A stretch of 64,000 bases of DNA from Octopus vulgaris (GCA_951406725.2 OX597835.1:15748001-15812000); one strand, 5' to 3'. Shown: positions 2,126 through 63,951, counted from the first letter of the stretch. Notes: a model not told the origin generated them from the letters alone. Numbers and translations are program-made.

Positions 2126-5100
2126 GTAATTTCATTAAGGCTATATTTTCGTTATTATGGGTTTACATTTTTCTAGCTGAAATATAATATTTATTCCATG
2201 TAATCAAAGATTAATTATGGTTTTTAGTGTTTTACTTTCACTGCTATTGACTCGATATAAATGTATTGAAATGAAAATTTTCCGTCTGTGCGACATGGAC
2301 AATAATTAATTAAATATATGTCATATTTCGTTGACTTAATTTTCTTTAATTTTAACCCCATACTTACATGTCATTAAAGCGAAAGATAAGATAGTCTAAA
2401 GAAGTTCTAGCTGGGTGTTTTAATATTAATAATTAGTGTTCGCCCCCTTAATGGATATTATAACGAACAACGTATTTACTGTTTTCACACCTTCTTACCA
2501 TGTTTTGTTCTCCACGGTAACTGCTGTGTATTTACTTTTTAACAGTTGAAATATGTCACAAACATATTTCGGTAAATTTTTACCCATATTTCAACTAACC
2601 TAAATTTTACAAATAGTAAATAAATAAAAATGAAAGAAATAGCAGGTGATTTTGTTTTAATATAAATAAGTTTGTGGTATAACAAATGTAGATGGAGTTT
2701 TGGAATAGCTGTCCCTCGAAGTCTTACAGGAAAGAAGAAAGAATTGTCCCTTCATTTTTCAGTTTTCCTGTCTTTCCACGTACAATACGAAAATGTCTAA
2801 GAACAAATATTAATGCCAGTTGAGCACGGTTCTGATCCACCGAAGTCAACTTTGCCTTCCAATTTTCCGTAGAAGATAAAATAAAGTACCTATTAGATAC
2901 TTTGCTTTGTGATTGGATTTGGTTGATGGAAACTGAAAGAAGCCTGTTATATGTGTGTGTCTGTGTTTGTTCCCACCCATCACCACTTGACAACTGGTGT
3001 TGGTGTGTTTACATCCCCATAACTTAGCAGTTCAGCAAAAGAGACTGATAGAGTGAGTACTAGGCTTAAAAATAAGTCCTGGGGTCGATTTGTTTGATTT
3101 AAAAAAAAGAAAACCTTACGGTGATGCTCCAGCATGGCCACAGTCAAATGACTGAAACGAGTAAAAGTGTAATTTAATTTTTAGAACAATATTGTAGGGT
3201 AGGTCTTAGGGCCCAGATCTGGTCAGGTAAAATATTTGGGCTGGATCTGGCTGGTTTAGATGCTGAAGGGTCAAGGCAATGTCATTTGATAAGCAAGCAG
3301 CTGTCCCTCTTTACAATTTTATTAATAACTGGTTGTTGATTGCCAGTTAATTAAATTAAAGTTCCTTGGTCTTGTTATTAAATTACTGAATATATTTCTG
3401 CATTTTTAGTGAAATTGCCAAATGTGATGTCTGCCAGAAGCAACCATTTAAATACAGGTGTCCTTGTTGTTCAAAGCAAACCTGCTCGTTAACGTGTGTT
3501 AAGCAGCACAAGAATGATACAGGTTGTTCTGGTGTTCGAAATAAAACTGCTTTTGTAGCTGTTGATGATTTCAGTGACTTAAATCTTTTAAATGGTAAGT
3601 AAATGTCTTCTCTATTTAATATAACTTTATTATTATTTAATTTTCACAAAAAAAAAAGAAGTTAATTTCATTTCTTTCATTTTTTATAACAATGAAATTG
3701 CTGTCATCATCATTATCATTTAACGTCCGCTTTCCATGCTAGCATGGGTTGGACAATTTGACTGAAGACTGGCGAACTAGATGGCTGCACCAGGCTCCAA
3801 TTTGATCTGGCAGAGTTTCTACAGCTGGATGCCCTTCTTAACGCCAACCACTCCGTGAGTGTAGAGGGTGCTTTTACGTGCCACCGGCAAAAGGGCCAGT
3901 CAGGCAGGACTGGCAACGGTCACCCTCAAATGATGTTTTTTACGTGCCACCTGCACAGGAGCCAGTCCAGCGGCACTGGCAACGACCTTGCTCGAATATT
4001 TTTTCACGTGCCAGTAAAGCGACGCTAGTAATGATCATGCTCGAATGGTGCTTTTTACGTGCCCCCAGCACGGAAGCCAGTTTGCTGCTCTGCCAACGAT
4101 CTCACTCTGATGGTGATAAGCTCGTAAACATTTTATAAATGGTTTCGGGAAGTATATATAAGTACAAGGGTAGCTGTGTGCGTGAGAAGCTTGCTTTGCA
4201 ATCAGTTGGTTTTGGGTTCAGTCCCACTGAGTGACACCTTGGATAAGTGTCTGCTACTATAGTCCTGAGATTAACAATGCCTTGTGAGTAAATTTGGTAG
4301 ATGGAAACTGGGGGGGAAGCCCATCATATATATATATATATATATATATAGGTCTATTAAAATTACTAAGTCTCTCTAAAAGAGATTACGGCAGCGTTAC
4401 TGGAAATTAATAGTTATCGCCATACTAATATGGCAATCTTATAAATATAAGACTAAAGCTGTCGATGATTAGCTCCAAGAGACCACCGCCTCAAGCTAGC
4501 TATTTGACACACAATCTGCATCCATTATAGACTTTCGAACATAGTATGGCGATAACTATTAATTTCCAGTAACGCTGCCGTAATCTCTTTTAGAGAGACT
4601 TAGTAATTTTAATATTTCTATTATTGAAAACAAGTGGATATATTCCACTGAAACTAGGTAAATAGATTCTTCGAACAGGGACAGTCAGTAGCGACAACCT
4701 GCTGGGTCTGACTACGCTGCATTGATAAAGGGCAACTACCCTGAAACGCGTCTGCAGCTGTCTGACTGGCAGGATGAAGCGGCTGACCTCCCCTGTTCGA
4801 AAGTCTATAATGGACGCAGATTGTGTGTCAAATAGCTAGCTTGAGGTGGTGGCCTCTTGGAGCTAATCAACGACAGCTTTAGTCTTATATTTATAAGATT
4901 GCCATATTAGTATGGCGATAACTATTAATTTATATATAGGTCATTATTGTTTAATGTTTGCTTTCCATGCTGGCATGGATTGCACAGTTTGACATGGAGC
5001 TGACTAGCAGGGAGTTCTCCGTACTCCGGTTGTCTGTTCTGGCATGGTTTCTATGGCCGGATGCCCTTCCTAATGCCAACCACTTAGCAGTGTGCCAAGT

Positions 5101-7924
5101 TCTTTTTACATGCCACTGGTATAGGTGCATTAGTGCAGCTCAACACAGGTACATTTTAAGTGGCACCAGCACATGAAAGGACAAGCCTGTATATGTGGAA
5201 AACAGTGGTTTTAATTAGCTTGATGCGTCTTATCAAGTACAGCAAATTGCCACGTCTACTGATGTGTGTGTGTGGGGGTTGTGTCTGTCCCGCCCCCTAC
5301 CAGTTGCCAACTGGTGGGAGTGTGGTGGGAGTTGGTTATGTGCCTGTAACATAGAGGTTCAACAAATGAGACTGAACAGAATAAGTGTCAGACTGGAACC
5401 AATTTGTTCGTCTCAACTCTTGAAGGCAGTGCCCCAGTATGGCCGCAGTCCAATGATTGAAGCAAGTAAAAGAAAGGGAAAAGATATGTGTGAATAGAAT
5501 CTGTCCCATTGGGAGATAAAATAACAATATTTCAGCAGACTGGAAAGATGTCAAGGAGGTTGTTCACCAAGGAATATATAACTTTAATGTGATCAGTCAC
5601 CATCATCATCATCATCATCATCATCGTCGTCGTTTAACGTCCGTTCTCCATGCTACCATGGGTTGGACGGTTCGACTGGGGATCTGGGAAGCCAGAAGGC
5701 TGCATCAGGCTCCAGTCTGATCTGGCAGTGTTTCTACAGCTGGATGCCCTTCCTAACGCCAACCACTCCGTGAGTGTAGTGGGTGCTTTTTACGTGCCAC
5801 CTGCACTGGAGCCAGGCGAGGCTGGCATCGGCCACGATCGGATTGGTGCATTTTACGTCATATGTCTGTTTTCCATACTGGCAAGGTTTGATAGGAACTG
5901 ACCAGCTGAAGGGCTGTTTTGGCATGGTCTTTATGGCAGCATGGTCCTTCCAAGTAATTTCATGTTCTGGTGATAATTCTTTCTCTTTTCTTTTTCTTTT
6001 CTTCAGATTATCGTCTGCTTGAAGATACTGCACGGGTCACTGATAAATGCAAACGAGATCCACTGTTAAAACATCACAAGTCACGTTCTGTAAGTGAACT
6101 GTTTACCATTCCCGACTGGGAACTAATTTTTGTATTCATTTTTAAGTGCAGCTTTTCTTTGTCTGTTAAAACTTTCTAAACTAAAGGGGAGAAGTACAAG
6201 AAGTAGAGTTTACTCAGACCTTGCAAAATGAGGTTTAGACAGACACTGGTTGTCTTTGAAATGGAGTTGAGGAGGCTTTTCGTCTCGCAAGTTGCTTAGT
6301 GACTTTACTAGTGTTGGAACCATAGAAAAAAAAACCCAGTATATTTTGTAAAATGGTTGGTGTTAGGAAGGACATTCAGCTGTAGAAAGCATGCCAAAGC
6401 AGATACTGGAGCTTGATGTGGCCCTCTGGCTCATCGGATCCTGTCAAATCATCCAACCCATGCCAGCATGGGAAATGGACATTAAAAGATGATGAATGTC
6501 CAATCAGATTGTGTTAAGGGTGAGGACAGCTGTGTAAAGAAGCACTGAGCTCTAATTGTGGAGGGTACCTGTGGAAGGGATAGACCCAGGAAGACATGGG
6601 ACGAAGTGGTGAGAAAGGATCTTCGGATGCTGGACCTCACTGAGGAAGTAACAAGGGACTGGGAGATGTGACGATTTGTTGTATTTAAGATGATGTGTCA
6701 AGCTGAGTAAAATCGCTGTCTTCCATGCATACAGGCTTGTTCTTTTAGGTGCCGGTGCCACATAAAAAGCACCTGTGCTGGTGCTGCAGAAACGCACCTG
6801 TGCCAGTGGCACATAAAAAGCACCCAGCACACTCTGTTAAGTGGTTGGCATTAGGAAGGGCATCCAGCCATAAAAACCATGTTACATCAAACAATTGGAG
6901 TCTGGACAGCTCTCTGACTTACCTGCTCCTGTCAAACCATCCAACCCATGCCAGCATGGAAAAACGGACATTAAACAATAATGATGATGTGAGAAAATCA
7001 TCATCATTACCATTTTAATGCCCACTTTTCCATACTTGCATGGGTCAAGTGGAGTTTGTTGAGGGAATTTTTACAGTCAGATGTCTGCTCTTTTTGTTGC
7101 CAATCCTCACATGTTTCCTAATAAGGGAATGGTTCCCATGAATAAGCACGATTTTCACAGAGGATTGGAAATGGATGTCACTGCTTGTATGACGGTGACA
7201 CTCATTTACAGTTGTTGTGTAGCATCGGTTGTCAAGTGATGTTGTGGGGTGGGAGGACAAACACAGACACACATACATTCATATATATATATATATATGA
7301 CGTGCTTCTTTCAGTTTCTGCCTACCAAATCCACTCACAAGGCTTTGGTCGGCCTGAGGCCATAGTAGAAGACACTTGCCCAAGGTACCATGCAGTGGGA
7401 CTGAACCTGGAACCATGTGGTTGGTAAGCAAGCTACTTACCACACTGCCACTTCCAGTATAAATTAATATTACCGGTGCCTGGCACATTGGAAAAAAAAA
7501 ACTGCCAGTACACCACATCAGACAGTTTGAGAAACATTAATTTAGACGATATGGGGGGAAGAAAGCTGTTAATATTTAGTCAAACTGAAAAGCTTTATGA
7601 AGCATTTATTCAATATTTCAACAATTATTTTCTAGTTGCTGTGGCTGACCAAAGAAACCCACAAAAGGCACATCCATTTGAAATCTCTTCCTTATAATAT
7701 GGAACGGCGGAAACATAACACAAGTATATTCAATTTCAAGTAAGTGATTGGTTATCTTTCATCCTCTTTACTTGTTTCAGTCATTTGACTGTGGCCATGC
7801 TGGAGCACCGCCTTTTAGTCGAGCAAATCGACCTCAGGACTTGTTCTTTGGAAGCCTAGTACTTATTCTATCGGTCTCTTTTGCCGAACCGCTAAGTTAC
7901 GGGGATGTAAACACACAAACATAT

Positions 7925-7989
<65 letters not shown>

Positions 7990-10900
7990 GCTTCTTTCAG
8001 TTTCTGTCTACCAAATCCACTCACAAGGCTTTAGTTGTCCTGAAGCTATAATAGAAGACACTTGCCCAAGGTGCCACGCAGTGGGACTGAACCTAGAACC
8101 ATGTGGTTGGTAAGCAAGCTACTTACCACATAGCCACTCCTACGCCTATAGTAAAAGACCTTCAAGATTCTATGCTGAGGGGGCCAAATCTCAAAATCAC
8201 ACCTGCACCTGTTATATTTTAAATGATTTAATTAATTAATTTATTAAAACTAAATAAACGCTTATCATTAATTTCAGATCTAAACTAATTCAGTGGGACG
8301 TATCTTGGGTATTTCCACAGGCTGGAGTTTCACTTAAAGAAGAAAGGTAAGGCAGAATTAATTAAAGAATAAATTCTCTAATAGGTTTTCACATTGAACG
8401 TTCTCCCAATATTTGAATATTCAATTTCTTTTCTTTAGAATGTCTGAAGACTTGACCATAATGGAAGCATTTCAAAGTATATTCAACACAAGCAAGGCTG
8501 CATCGTTGTTTTTATATAAGCTCAATCAATATCGAAATGCAGACCCAGAGAAGCTGTGCTTTTTAATGAAAGCAGAAATGCATCCCTCAAAAGATATGCA
8601 GTAAGATTTTAATTATTATTTCAACATGTCTTGAATTTGTTTTTCACATGTATGGATGTATGGATGTGTGTATGTATGTATGTATATGCAACAAACAAAC
8701 CAACACATGTATGTTTGATATAATGTGGCATTCAAATGGTTGTGCCAAAAACAGTTAGTTAGCCTCTGACATAGACAGCACAAAGGAAACTACCTATTCC
8801 ATTCCTTTTATTCACACACACACACATATATGTAAAGGTTGGCAACACCATGCAACCATGGAAAAGTAGATAGCAAAACAATCATGATGATACACACACA
8901 TGTGTGTGTGTGCATGTATGTATGTCATCATCATCATTATCATTTAACGTCCACTTTCCATGTTGGCATGGGTTGGACAGTTTGACCAAGGACTGGCAAG
9001 CCAGTAGACTGTACCAGGCTCCAATCTGATCTGGCAAGGTTTCTACAGCTGGATGCCCTTCCTAATGCATCTGTCAGTTATGACAATGAGTGTTCCAGTT
9101 GATCTCGTAAATGGAACAGCCTGCTCATGAAATTAACATGCAAGTGGCTGATCTTTCTACCATAGGCACAAGGCCTGAAATTTTGGGTGGAGGGTCAATA
9201 AATTAAATACACAACTGGTACTTAATTTATTGACTCAAAGGATGAAAGGCAAAGTCGACCTTGGAATTTGAACTCAGAATGTAGCAACAGGTGAAATACC
9301 GCAATGATAATGATTATGATGACATACATACATATATGCATGCACACACACAGATGTGTGTGTATATCATCATATTTGTTGTGCTATCTACTTTTCCATG
9401 GTTGTATGGTGTTGCCAACCTTTATCTGTTTCCATGTTTTCACAGAAGATTGGAAAACAAGGGACTCTGTTTGTATGACTGACATTCATTTATTACAAAC
9501 TCACAATGTCAAGACAAGGGGACACACACACACACACACATGACAGGCTTCTTTCAGTTTCTTATTTCTTTATTGTCCACAAGGGGCTAAACATAGAGGG
9601 GACAAACAAGGACAGACAAATGGATTAAGTCAACTACATCGACCCCAGTGCATAACTGGTACTTATTTTATCGATCCCCAAAAGGATGAAAGGTAAAGTC
9701 GACCTTGGCAGAATTTGAACTCAGAACGTAACAGCAGACGAAATACCGCGAAGCATTTCGCCCGCATTGCTAACGCTTCTGCCAGCTCGCTGCCTTCGAC
9801 TTTTACTTCCTCTAAGTGATCGGGTTTGATCGTCTTCTCTGGGCCATCAGAGAACGTGCCGTCAACTAAACATACTCAAGGCTTTGGTTGGCCTTGCACT
9901 ATAGTAGAGGATATTTGACCAAGGTTCCTCACAGTGGGACTGAACTTGAAACCACATGGTTGAAAGTTGTAAACCACAGCCATACCTTTCTATGCAGAAC
10001 ATTAAGCTTGTGAGATATATGTGTGTGTGTGCATATAATTTCTTTTTCTTTTCTATTCTGTCTCCTAATTTTGACTAAAAAACCTGGCTATTACAAGTTT
10101 GTCCCCTTTACATATACAGACGTCTGTGACTTTGTCCCTTTGCTCTACTCAATCAAATTTTTCTATTTTGTGAGACTATAAGTTCTCGTGCATATGTTCC
10201 AGTCTCAAGACAGGCTACAGTAATAAGAAACAATTTAAGCTAAGACCATTTTCTTCCCTTATCTAACCTATATCAGCATGGGGGGGAAAAAATGTGATGA
10301 TGATGATGATAGTAATGATCCTTTTTTTTTTCTTGCTTTTAGTTATTACACGTTACAAGCAGACAAAACATTTCTTGATAATTTATATGGAAAGACCCTT
10401 CTGGAGCATCCTGTTATCCACGTTATTTTTGCTGAGGAAAAATCATCTTATTTGTTTCTAATCAATGACAGTAAGTGAATTGTATTTCATTCTTGACATT
10501 TTTGCGATTCTCTTTCTCATATATTATTATGATTCATTATGTAACTTTAATACATAACATATAGAACATATATATACCTTAATACATAATATACATAACT
10601 AGCAGTATCGCCCGGGTTTGTAAGGGAAATAACTATATAAGCATTTTTAGAGAGTTACTTCCTTTATAGATGCCAATTCGGGCTTTCTTAGCCATTTCTG
10701 TTTTGGTGTCTTCAAGCCATGAAGTCGTTGTTCTAAAAGAACGCTGGTCTCCTTGACAACGCGTTACGATGTTGATTTCTTTACACTCCCTTCCCCACAG
10801 CTTCACGAGGGAGGGAAGGGGGAGAAGCAAACAGGTGCAGCTGTGAGCGTGGACGCCAACTCCGCCGCCATCGACACACGAAAAATTATGCATTAAAATG

Positions 10901-15687: not shown

Positions 15688-60607
<44,920 letters not shown>

Positions 60608-63459: not shown

Positions 63460-63951
63460 ACATAAAATTATCAACCATCGTACAAACAATAACTCTGAGC
63501 ACCTTTTCAAACTCCACCCATCTAACACCCGTGGACATATTTACAAAGTCAGAAAACAGCACAGCTCCCATGACTTCAGGAAACATTTTTTCACGCTGAG
63601 AGTTGCTGAAGCATGGAACAAACTGCCGGCATCAGTTGTTAGTTGTCGGAGCACTGCATCCTTCAAAACTTCCATGCTTTCTGAGATTCGCCAATACTAC
63701 ACCTAATTTTCTCAAAACTTCCATGCTTTCTGAGATTCGCCAACACTACACCTGATTTTCTCAAAACTTCCATGCTTTCTGAGATTCGCCAACACTACAC
63801 CTGATTTTCTCCCCTCCATACACACACAAGCATGTATCTGACTCATGCATTGTTCGCTTTCCAGACATTTGTACATTACTGCATATACTCAGACAAGTTG
63901 TGGTGCACCTGAGCACTGTATACAATAATTTCATTATTATTATTATTATTT
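63460..63951 (+). mobile_element. CR1-clade LINE 3' end with a triplicated 49-bp segment
   Basis: NTRGHIYKV...RKHFFTLRVAEAWNKLP..VV....SFK, then an (ATT)n tail. The same tail appears inverted at about 31615-31705. Confidence 0.85.

Follow-up and report, generated by a model that had tools for sequence, protein, structure and literature searches.

Gene setting of the insert

The DNA analysed here is a stretch of 64,000 nucleotides (nt) from Octopus vulgaris (GCA_951406725.2, OX597835.1:15748001-15812000), hereafter called the window. It contains the gene ZNHIT6, and intron 2 of this gene holds a short complex insert that carries a hammerhead ribozyme motif together with marks of insertion by Penelope-like elements (PLEs). 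Judged from its predicted product, the host gene is ZNHIT6/BCD1: one exon matches the zf-HIT domain (3411-3593), BCD1 domain matches were found in three later exons (two of them above the curated cut-off), and a homologue search returned box C/D snoRNA protein 1 of O. sinensis with 100% identity over the query. An eight-exon model with GT-AG introns is identical to this O. sinensis protein in 261 of 262 residues; the single mismatch is an A for S at position 172, in the exon 8439-8600, a difference that may point to another allele or a sister species. The intron assigned to the insert in a preliminary description of this DNA is the same one that this model gives.

2112-2125, 3410-3594, 6007-6089, 7636-7739, 8278-8346, 8439-8600, 10343-10470 and 12274 onward, + strand: coding exons of ZNHIT6
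3595-6006, + strand: intron 2 of ZNHIT6, numbered by coding exons only

Within this intron, the donor is 760 nt and the acceptor 1075 nt away from the insert, whose hammerhead is in the sense of the gene. It is flanked by two abundant repeats that resemble short interspersed elements (4150-4325 and 4943-5100), with 25 and 14 other BLAST matches within the window; one of these repeats ends in a (TA)n run and the other is normally led by a run of CAT repeats.

Anatomy of the insert

The insert totals 577 bases, made up of one unit of 366 nt, a redundancy of 24 nt and an inverted arm of 187 nt, so that the locus holds 1.07 units and one ribozyme. Its parts, with the duplicated target in base pairs (bp), are the following:

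4343-4354: left target-site duplication, 12 bp, at the end of the (TA)n run 4326-4350
4355-4541, - strand: inverted, 5'-truncated head-to-head copy, the reverse complement of 4794-4907 followed by 4542-4614
4355-4403, - strand: tail of 49 nt, found in the inverted arm only, the reverse complement of 4566-4614
4542-4907, + strand: non-coding unit of 366 nt, GC 42% (0.418), longest ATG frame 22 codons
4908-4931, + strand: terminal redundancy, 24 of 24 nt identical to 4542-4565, its last T common to the duplication
4931-4942: right target-site duplication, 12 bp

The terminal redundancy had been recognized in the preliminary description, with a unit that started at 4541 and a period of 367 nt; the redundancy holds, but position 4541 is an A and 4907 a T, which moves the start of the unit to 4542 and shortens the period to 366 nt. 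Aligning a unit of 367 nt needed a gap of 1 nt. Likewise, the inverted copy does span the unit junction, and it is one base longer than the extent of 4355-4540 given before. The target duplication, for which at least 12 bp had been claimed, is exactly 12 bp and is not extendable; since T4931 is common to the end of the element, 11 bp of it are unambiguous. Considering both strands of the window, the duplicated 12-mer occurs twice, only at the two flanks of the insert.

The inverted arm is identical to the forward sequence in 183 of 187 positions without gaps, and all four mismatches fall in its first 114 nt. Two of the four are CpG transitions, a change expected from CpG decay. On the calibration of PMC13282606, four differences in 187 nt would date the insertion to roughly 3 million years, or to less than that if the two arms derive from different RNAs. 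These differences were also considered as possible covariation, given that three of the four keep the pairing between the arms; nevertheless, a C or T opposite a G always pairs, so that they provide no evidence of it. The joint between the inverted and the forward copy is blunt and without microhomology, and no self-priming palindrome was found there. At the other side of the insert, the forward copy ends at the equivalent of 4565 and the inverted copy at 4614, which places the ends of the two arms 49-50 nt apart. The outer end of the tail and the end of the terminal redundancy (4931) would correspond to two separate starts of reverse transcription. This tail of 49-50 nt is the most diagnostic PLE mark of the insert, and it had been overlooked in the preliminary description. 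At the right end, homology that could have served for priming is limited to one exact nucleotide plus patchy AT matches. No other copy of the unit was found in the window and no tandem array was detected at the insert locus at a score of 80. An exact gapped-motif scan of bacterial and archaeal genomes gave 0 matches, a result that says nothing on octopus.

The hammerhead motif

The ribozyme was sought with a hand-built descriptor that allowed either C3-G8 or U3-A8 in the core, the U3-A8 option having been added after the motif was seen. It finds a single site on both strands of the window, with the same cut position that had been predicted earlier:

4716-4759, + strand: type I hammerhead motif, core 4722-4752, helix I 4716-4721/4753-4758

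The motif has the 3-9 core, the GAAA, the NUH triplet and the helix order of a type I hammerhead. Helix I has 6 bp, the core carries U3-A8, and helix II has 4 bp closed by A10.1-U11.1 (A4729-U4742), with a 6-nt loop II that ends in A; helix III is reduced to 1 bp and is capped by a palindromic loop of 4 nt. The cut is predicted after 4752, in GUC17 (UC17 at 4751-4752), and U1.7 is unpaired. These residue numbers follow the usual hammerhead numbering. Shuffling the unit 20,000 times gave four matches under the relaxed rule and one under the strict rule, rates that are somewhat optimistic given that the descriptor was made post hoc; in 30 shuffles of the whole window the mean number of matches was 0.03 (relaxed) and 0.0 (strict).

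Other candidate elements were rejected. An Rfam match to MIR6217 (70.6 bits, below the gathering threshold of 110) merely reflects the hairpin formed by the inverted arm, and a match to snoZ40 is due to chance. A scan with the consensus boxes of RNA polymerase III promoters gave a B-box-like 9-mer at 4795 with one mismatch and an A-box-like 11-mer at 4767 with two mismatches; this promoter was discarded because the boxes are only 28 nt apart, because of the mismatches, and because the unit contains four A-like and three B-like matches.

The U3-A8 pair is a natural covariation that was first seen in PLE-associated motifs (PMC4209133). On the other hand, the canonical metazoan type, which is found in small tandem repeats and works as a dimer, is defined by helices of 6, 4 and 1-2 bp and by a palindromic loop (PMC4209133); judged from its helix sizes, the octopus motif is of this canonical type and not of the minimal type of PLEs. 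Its U1.7 and the terminal A of its loop II also fit the minimal tertiary contact, which consists of an unpaired U1.7 and a terminal A in loop II (PMC11875169). According to the computed energies, helix III of the monomer costs about 5.7 kcal/mol, and the intermolecular duplex of helix III yields -8.9 kcal/mol. The monomer of an axolotl hammerhead of similar shape cleaves at 6% per hour, and its dimer cleaves well (PMC7229834). A lone hammerhead that depends on a dimer for its helix III is predicted to cleave the ZNHIT6 pre-mRNA poorly. Moreover, there is one hammerhead with a helix III of 1 bp, and circles need two cuts; therefore, the lone copy cannot release a circle. For the same features of the motif, the RNA assays proposed in the preliminary description would report on the family and not on this locus.

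Predicted folding of the unit and of the intron

Folded as a circle, the 366-nt unit reaches -127.8 kcal/mol (z -7.9). None of 200 shuffled sequences was as stable, nor was any of 67 GC-matched segments of the window, the best of which reached -110.6 kcal/mol. The following structures were predicted within the unit or across its junction:

4662-4808, + strand: long imperfect hairpin of 147 nt that extends helix I and is capped by the hammerhead, z -8.2
4607-4629, + strand: predicted 8-bp hairpin within a three-way junction (4599-4658)
4898-4919, + strand: predicted 9-bp hairpin across the unit junction

The hairpin at 4662-4808 supplies most of the stability of the unit, and helices I and II of the ribozyme are preformed in the circle (pair probability 0.94-1.0, at a cost of 1.1 kcal/mol). 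The outer end of the inverted arm (4614) is the last 5' stem base of the 4607-4629 hairpin, and the forward copy has its 5' truncation (4542, the counterpart of 4908) within the loop of the 4898-4919 hairpin.

When the region 4250-5050 was folded, 127 of the 138 pairs between the arms had a predicted probability above 0.9, an alternative hairpin of 73 bp was excluded, and the helices of the ribozyme still formed, in the loop between the arms. Hence the long double-stranded RNA that had been proposed for the ZNHIT6 pre-mRNA is also predicted by this fold, and the arms would form an intronic duplex of about 138 bp. Octopus heavily hyper-edits duplexes of this kind (PMC5625713), which makes adenosine-to-inosine editing of the arms likely. 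The duplex is thus a likely ADAR substrate that would be spliced out with the intron, and the effect of the insert on its host is probably neutral. The duplex is not special, and intronic double-stranded RNA is ordinary in this window, where other long inverted pairs have arms that are 85-98% complementary. These pairs, with arms of 80-181 nt, are located at 54730-55953, 23519-24856, 41563-42734 and 8833-9424. The last of them sits in intron 6 of ZNHIT6; the first (98%) overlaps a tandem duplication of 179 nt (55553-55914) and is perhaps another young complex insertion.

Identity of the insert and mechanism of insertion

We consider, with a probability of roughly 0.68, that the insert is a single young dispersed copy of a non-autonomous Penelope-derived element of 366 nt, i.e., a retrozyme without long terminal repeats (non-LTR retrozyme), likely written into (TA)n by a PLE protein with reverse transcriptase (RT) and GIY-YIG domains. 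Retrozymes measure 150-450 bp (350-390 bp in mussel), have a GC content below 50%, and are highly self-paired with a ribozyme that is free to fold (PMC7229834). The unit has the size of a retrozyme, is non-coding and is below 50% GC, and its circle is highly self-paired with the ribozyme free to fold, this stability coming mostly from one hairpin; tandem copies with two or more ribozymes are absent from the locus. As for insertion, PLEs are marked by an inverted, 5'-truncated copy at the 5' end, by a tail of 30-40 bp that is often found at one end only and by a bias towards microsatellites (PMC8557442); their inserts show an inverted pseudo-LTR (pLTR) plus tail and duplications of 8-10 bp, and are mostly head-to-head (PMC3846280). 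The insert shows an inverted, 5'-truncated head-to-head copy at its 5' end, a one-sided tail and a short duplication in (TA)n, and the preliminary description, which had read it as a Penelope-type insertion of a retrozyme-sized unit, was sound in this respect. Given that it carries no coding remnant and no open reading frame (ORF) for RT or GIY-YIG, it is not an autonomous PLE. None of the 169 stop-free frames of 75 or more amino acids in the window contains either of these domains, so that the enzyme came from elsewhere.

Several reports are relevant to this identity. Animal retrozymes have been argued to be non-autonomous PLE derivatives (bioRxiv 10.64898/2026.07.22.740005). The octopus Naiad and Hydra families of PLEs prefer (TA)n (PMC8557442 supplement); in cephalopods, Naiads are said to have been inactive for a long time, and for O. 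vulgaris 31 Penelope-like families with recent activity are reported (PMC13282606). The purified PLE protein of anole cuts AT-rich DNA and extends both strands; it starts inside the RNA at two sites, the spacing of which equals the genomic tail, and for this protein ribozyme cleavage is dispensable, unprocessed RNA being the main substrate (PMC11167929).

The following course of events is proposed. A donor located elsewhere would have given an RNA longer than one unit, and the enzyme would have cut the two strands of AT-rich DNA with a stagger of 11-12 bp. Both DNA ends would then have primed reverse transcription internally, at the equivalents of 4565 and 4614. One cDNA, of 390 nt, would have passed the uncut 4752/4753 site, completed one turn of the unit and ended within the loop of the hairpin at the unit junction. 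The other, of 187 nt, would have been arrested 15 nt inside the ribozyme hairpin, immediately ahead of the G-C-rich core, and the two cDNA ends would have been joined blunt. Neither end of the insert falls at the ribozyme cut, which rules out a cleaved linear monomer as the template. If the element is a retrozyme, an uncleaved tandem transcript is the somewhat better candidate for the template, and a ligated circle is a possible but less favoured one; both give the same product and are indistinguishable from this copy. The circular-RNA footprint seen in the preliminary description is therefore overstated, as a circle is allowed but not required. The broader claim of a tandem or circular template fares better: a template of more than one unit is the simplest reading, but it does not amount to proof of a tandem, given that a template jump at 4614|4615 also parses the insert.

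Alternative explanations

This jump belongs to another explanation, which we regard as unlikely, though it is the strongest competitor: the insert would consist of three 5'-truncated fragments from the 3' end of a longer PLE, and truncation would have produced the 366-nt unit by accident, with no need for a short tandem or circular RNA. The RT would have copied from 4931 to 4615, jumped to the start at the tail end and gone on from 4614 to 4542; the inverted piece would have been primed by the second DNA end. The typical PLE insert is a partial tandem made of truncated copies, its hammerhead lying close to the 3' end (PMC8557442), and the association of U3-A8 with PLE motifs, already mentioned, points in the same direction. 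Furthermore, the forward part could be split at 4614|4615, exactly at the outer end of the inverted arm. What such a split would have to explain is a predicted structure of 14-15 bp belonging to the three-way junction, which spans this joint with pair probabilities mostly above 0.9. The weight of this structure depends on its boundaries, which were chosen after the fold was seen. With three choices of boundary, it was equalled at 50, 16 and 2 of 255 alternative truncation points, in 204, 146 and 138 of 2000 shuffles, and in 84, 44 and 28 of 605 window segments; these counts decide neither for nor against a native joint. Against a longer PLE stand the hammerhead, with the helix sizes of the canonical retrozyme type and U1.7 instead of the PLE minimal form, the length of the unit, which is within the known range of retrozymes, and the absence of coding remnants in the insert and of RT or GIY-YIG domains in the window frames.

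It is quite improbable that a retrozyme RNA was mobilised through twin priming by a long interspersed element (LINE) of the RTE, CR1, L1 or R4 type, the offset of 49-50 nt being then an overlap at the inversion point. Twin priming by L1 does give 5' inversions with target duplications. In addition, LINEs rank first in activity among the retroelements of O. vulgaris when judged by coverage (PMC13282606), and Cervera and de la Pena allow LINEs as partners of retrozymes (PMC7229834). Nevertheless, the insert has neither poly(A) nor a short-repeat 3' tail, its inverted arm re-copies 138 nt that are also held by the forward arm instead of an upstream non-overlapping piece, and the (TA)n target with a one-sided tail fits PLEs (PMC8557442). 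Even less probable is an event at the DNA level (repair capture, fold-back or template switching on a satellite monomer) or an artefact of assembly. The sequence is hairpin-rich and AT-rich and adjoins a microsatellite, and complex PLE inserts trouble short-read assembly (PMC8557442); however, the 12-bp duplication is clean and is found nowhere else in the window, the four differences between the arms, with their two CpG transitions, are unexpected from a collapsed assembly, and the window contains no N.

Several observations lower the probability of the retrozyme itself. A single copy was seen in the window, and the parts of the unit beyond the ribozyme hairpin show only mild structure (z about -2.1 and -2.3). 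No Rfam hammerhead family was matched by the whole window at the gathering threshold, or by 4300-5000 and 4695-4785 at E values of up to 10. The G10.1-C11.1 pair is highly conserved in hammerheads (PMC4209133), and its replacement by A10.1-U11.1 implies that the ribozyme may be weak or dead; only one of nine tested retrozyme dimers cleaved (bioRxiv 10.64898/2026.07.22.740005). An exact search for the 14-nt ribozyme motif gave 0 matches in the readable part of the PLE consensus text (PMC8557442 supplement), and the octopus PLE hammerhead tabulated there, that of Hydra-1_oBim, differs from the one in the insert. The tail of 49-50 nt also exceeds the usual 30-40 (PMC8557442), and Arkhipova et al. 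ascribe the inverted joints of PLEs to self-priming and not to priming from two ends (PMC3846280).

A further-reaching proposal is tentative, and we hold it to be doubtful: an undescribed family of octopus retrozymes, with a dimer-dependent U3-A8/A10.1-U11.1 hammerhead, might circulate as a circle of 366 nt, all its dispersed copies bearing the Penelope signature, i.e., fixed starts 49-50 nt apart, head-to-head inversion and (TA)n targets. If this were true, the junctions would give direct physical evidence of retrozymes being mobilised by Penelope enzymes that prime both strands on a circle.

Comparison with known elements

The non-LTR retrozymes of metazoans, as described for coral, mussel (350-390 bp) and axolotl (330/350 bp), resemble the insert in unit size, in a GC content below 50% and in the lack of an ORF (PMC7229834, bioRxiv 10.64898/2026.07.22.740005); the likeness extends to the canonical type I hammerhead, to the strong self-pairing and to a duplication of more than 4 bp. 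The dimer-dependent HHR_Amex1 of axolotl has a helix III like that of the insert (PMC7229834). In Xenopus dispersed retrozyme monomers are common, also in introns, and the insert is likewise dispersed and intronic; under the two-ribozyme rule of the same preprint, with 1.07 units it does not count as "active" (bioRxiv 10.64898/2026.07.22.740005). The insert differs from metazoan retrozymes in its U3-A8 core and A10.1-U11.1 pair, and also in the inverted arm with a tail, which is absent from the descriptions of metazoan retrozymes that these sources give in the sections considered (PMC7229834, bioRxiv 10.64898/2026.07.22.740005).

With the endonuclease-positive PLEs (Penelope/Poseidon, Neptune, Hydra and Naiad; PMC8557442, PMC3846280, PMC11167929), the insert shares the head-to-head inversion, the one-sided tail, the short duplication and the (TA)n target, as well as a type I hammerhead upstream of the presumed RT starts and a palindromic helix III. 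In contrast with these elements, it has no ORF for RT or GIY-YIG, its tail is of 49-50 instead of 30-40 nt, and its hammerhead is canonical instead of minimal. The two presumed starts are 179 and 228 nt downstream of the ribozyme cut, versus about 85-92 nt in Poseidon from anole. Naiads differ in lacking hammerheads of the canonical kind. Non-autonomous Chlamys PLEs such as MRC1 are also short non-coding passengers of PLEs that form pLTRs and head-to-tail copies; these are green-algal elements, generally without canonical hammerheads, and their 3' end resembles that of an autonomous family (PMC8557442). The Cercyon PLE hammerheads of Schistosoma show the same U3-A8 covariation, mostly as single dispersed motifs; they are of the minimal form, with a long helix II and a short helix I, whereas the insert has a canonical frame of 6 and 4 bp on a hairpin of 147 nt (PMC4209133).

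Retrozymes, their proposed PLE origin, dispersed intronic monomers, PLE inserts with an inverted copy plus tail, and the U3-A8 covariation are already in print, and an octopus PLE hammerhead has been tabulated (PMC8557442 supplement). Among the papers listed, none was on an octopus retrozyme as judged by title or opening of the abstract, in a search that left most subscription papers outside. The link between retrozymes and Penelope has so far come from shared type I hammerheads, co-occurrence and homology of pLTRs, the mechanism being left open in these reports (PMC7229834, bioRxiv 10.64898/2026.07.22.740005). As a single intronic insertion the octopus element is ordinary; its value is that of a clean specimen, in which a unit of retrozyme type carries insertion marks specific to PLEs and two exact end points. 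It would extend retrozymes to cephalopods and it supplies a ribozyme variant missed by Rfam.

Other features of the window

A multi-exon gene for an ABC transporter, with two membrane and two ATPase domains, occupies 17567-46354 on the - strand and is convergent with ZNHIT6. The window also contains several tandem arrays, among them a C-rich minisatellite at 37243-38430 (period 32 nt, 38 copies, 93% matches), in which all three frames of the + strand are stop-free for more than 400 codons without a Pfam match.

26579, 28183 and 45824, - strand: Pfam ABC_membrane matches of the ABC transporter
17567, 20705 and 34893, - strand: Pfam ABC_tran matches of the ABC transporter
33297-33757: tandem array, period 36 (13 copies)
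20380-20656: tandem array, period 18 (15 copies)
63663-63811: tandem array, period 49 (3 copies)

The 18-nt array is overlapped by a Pfam Hexapep match (20365-20751), which is probably artefactual.

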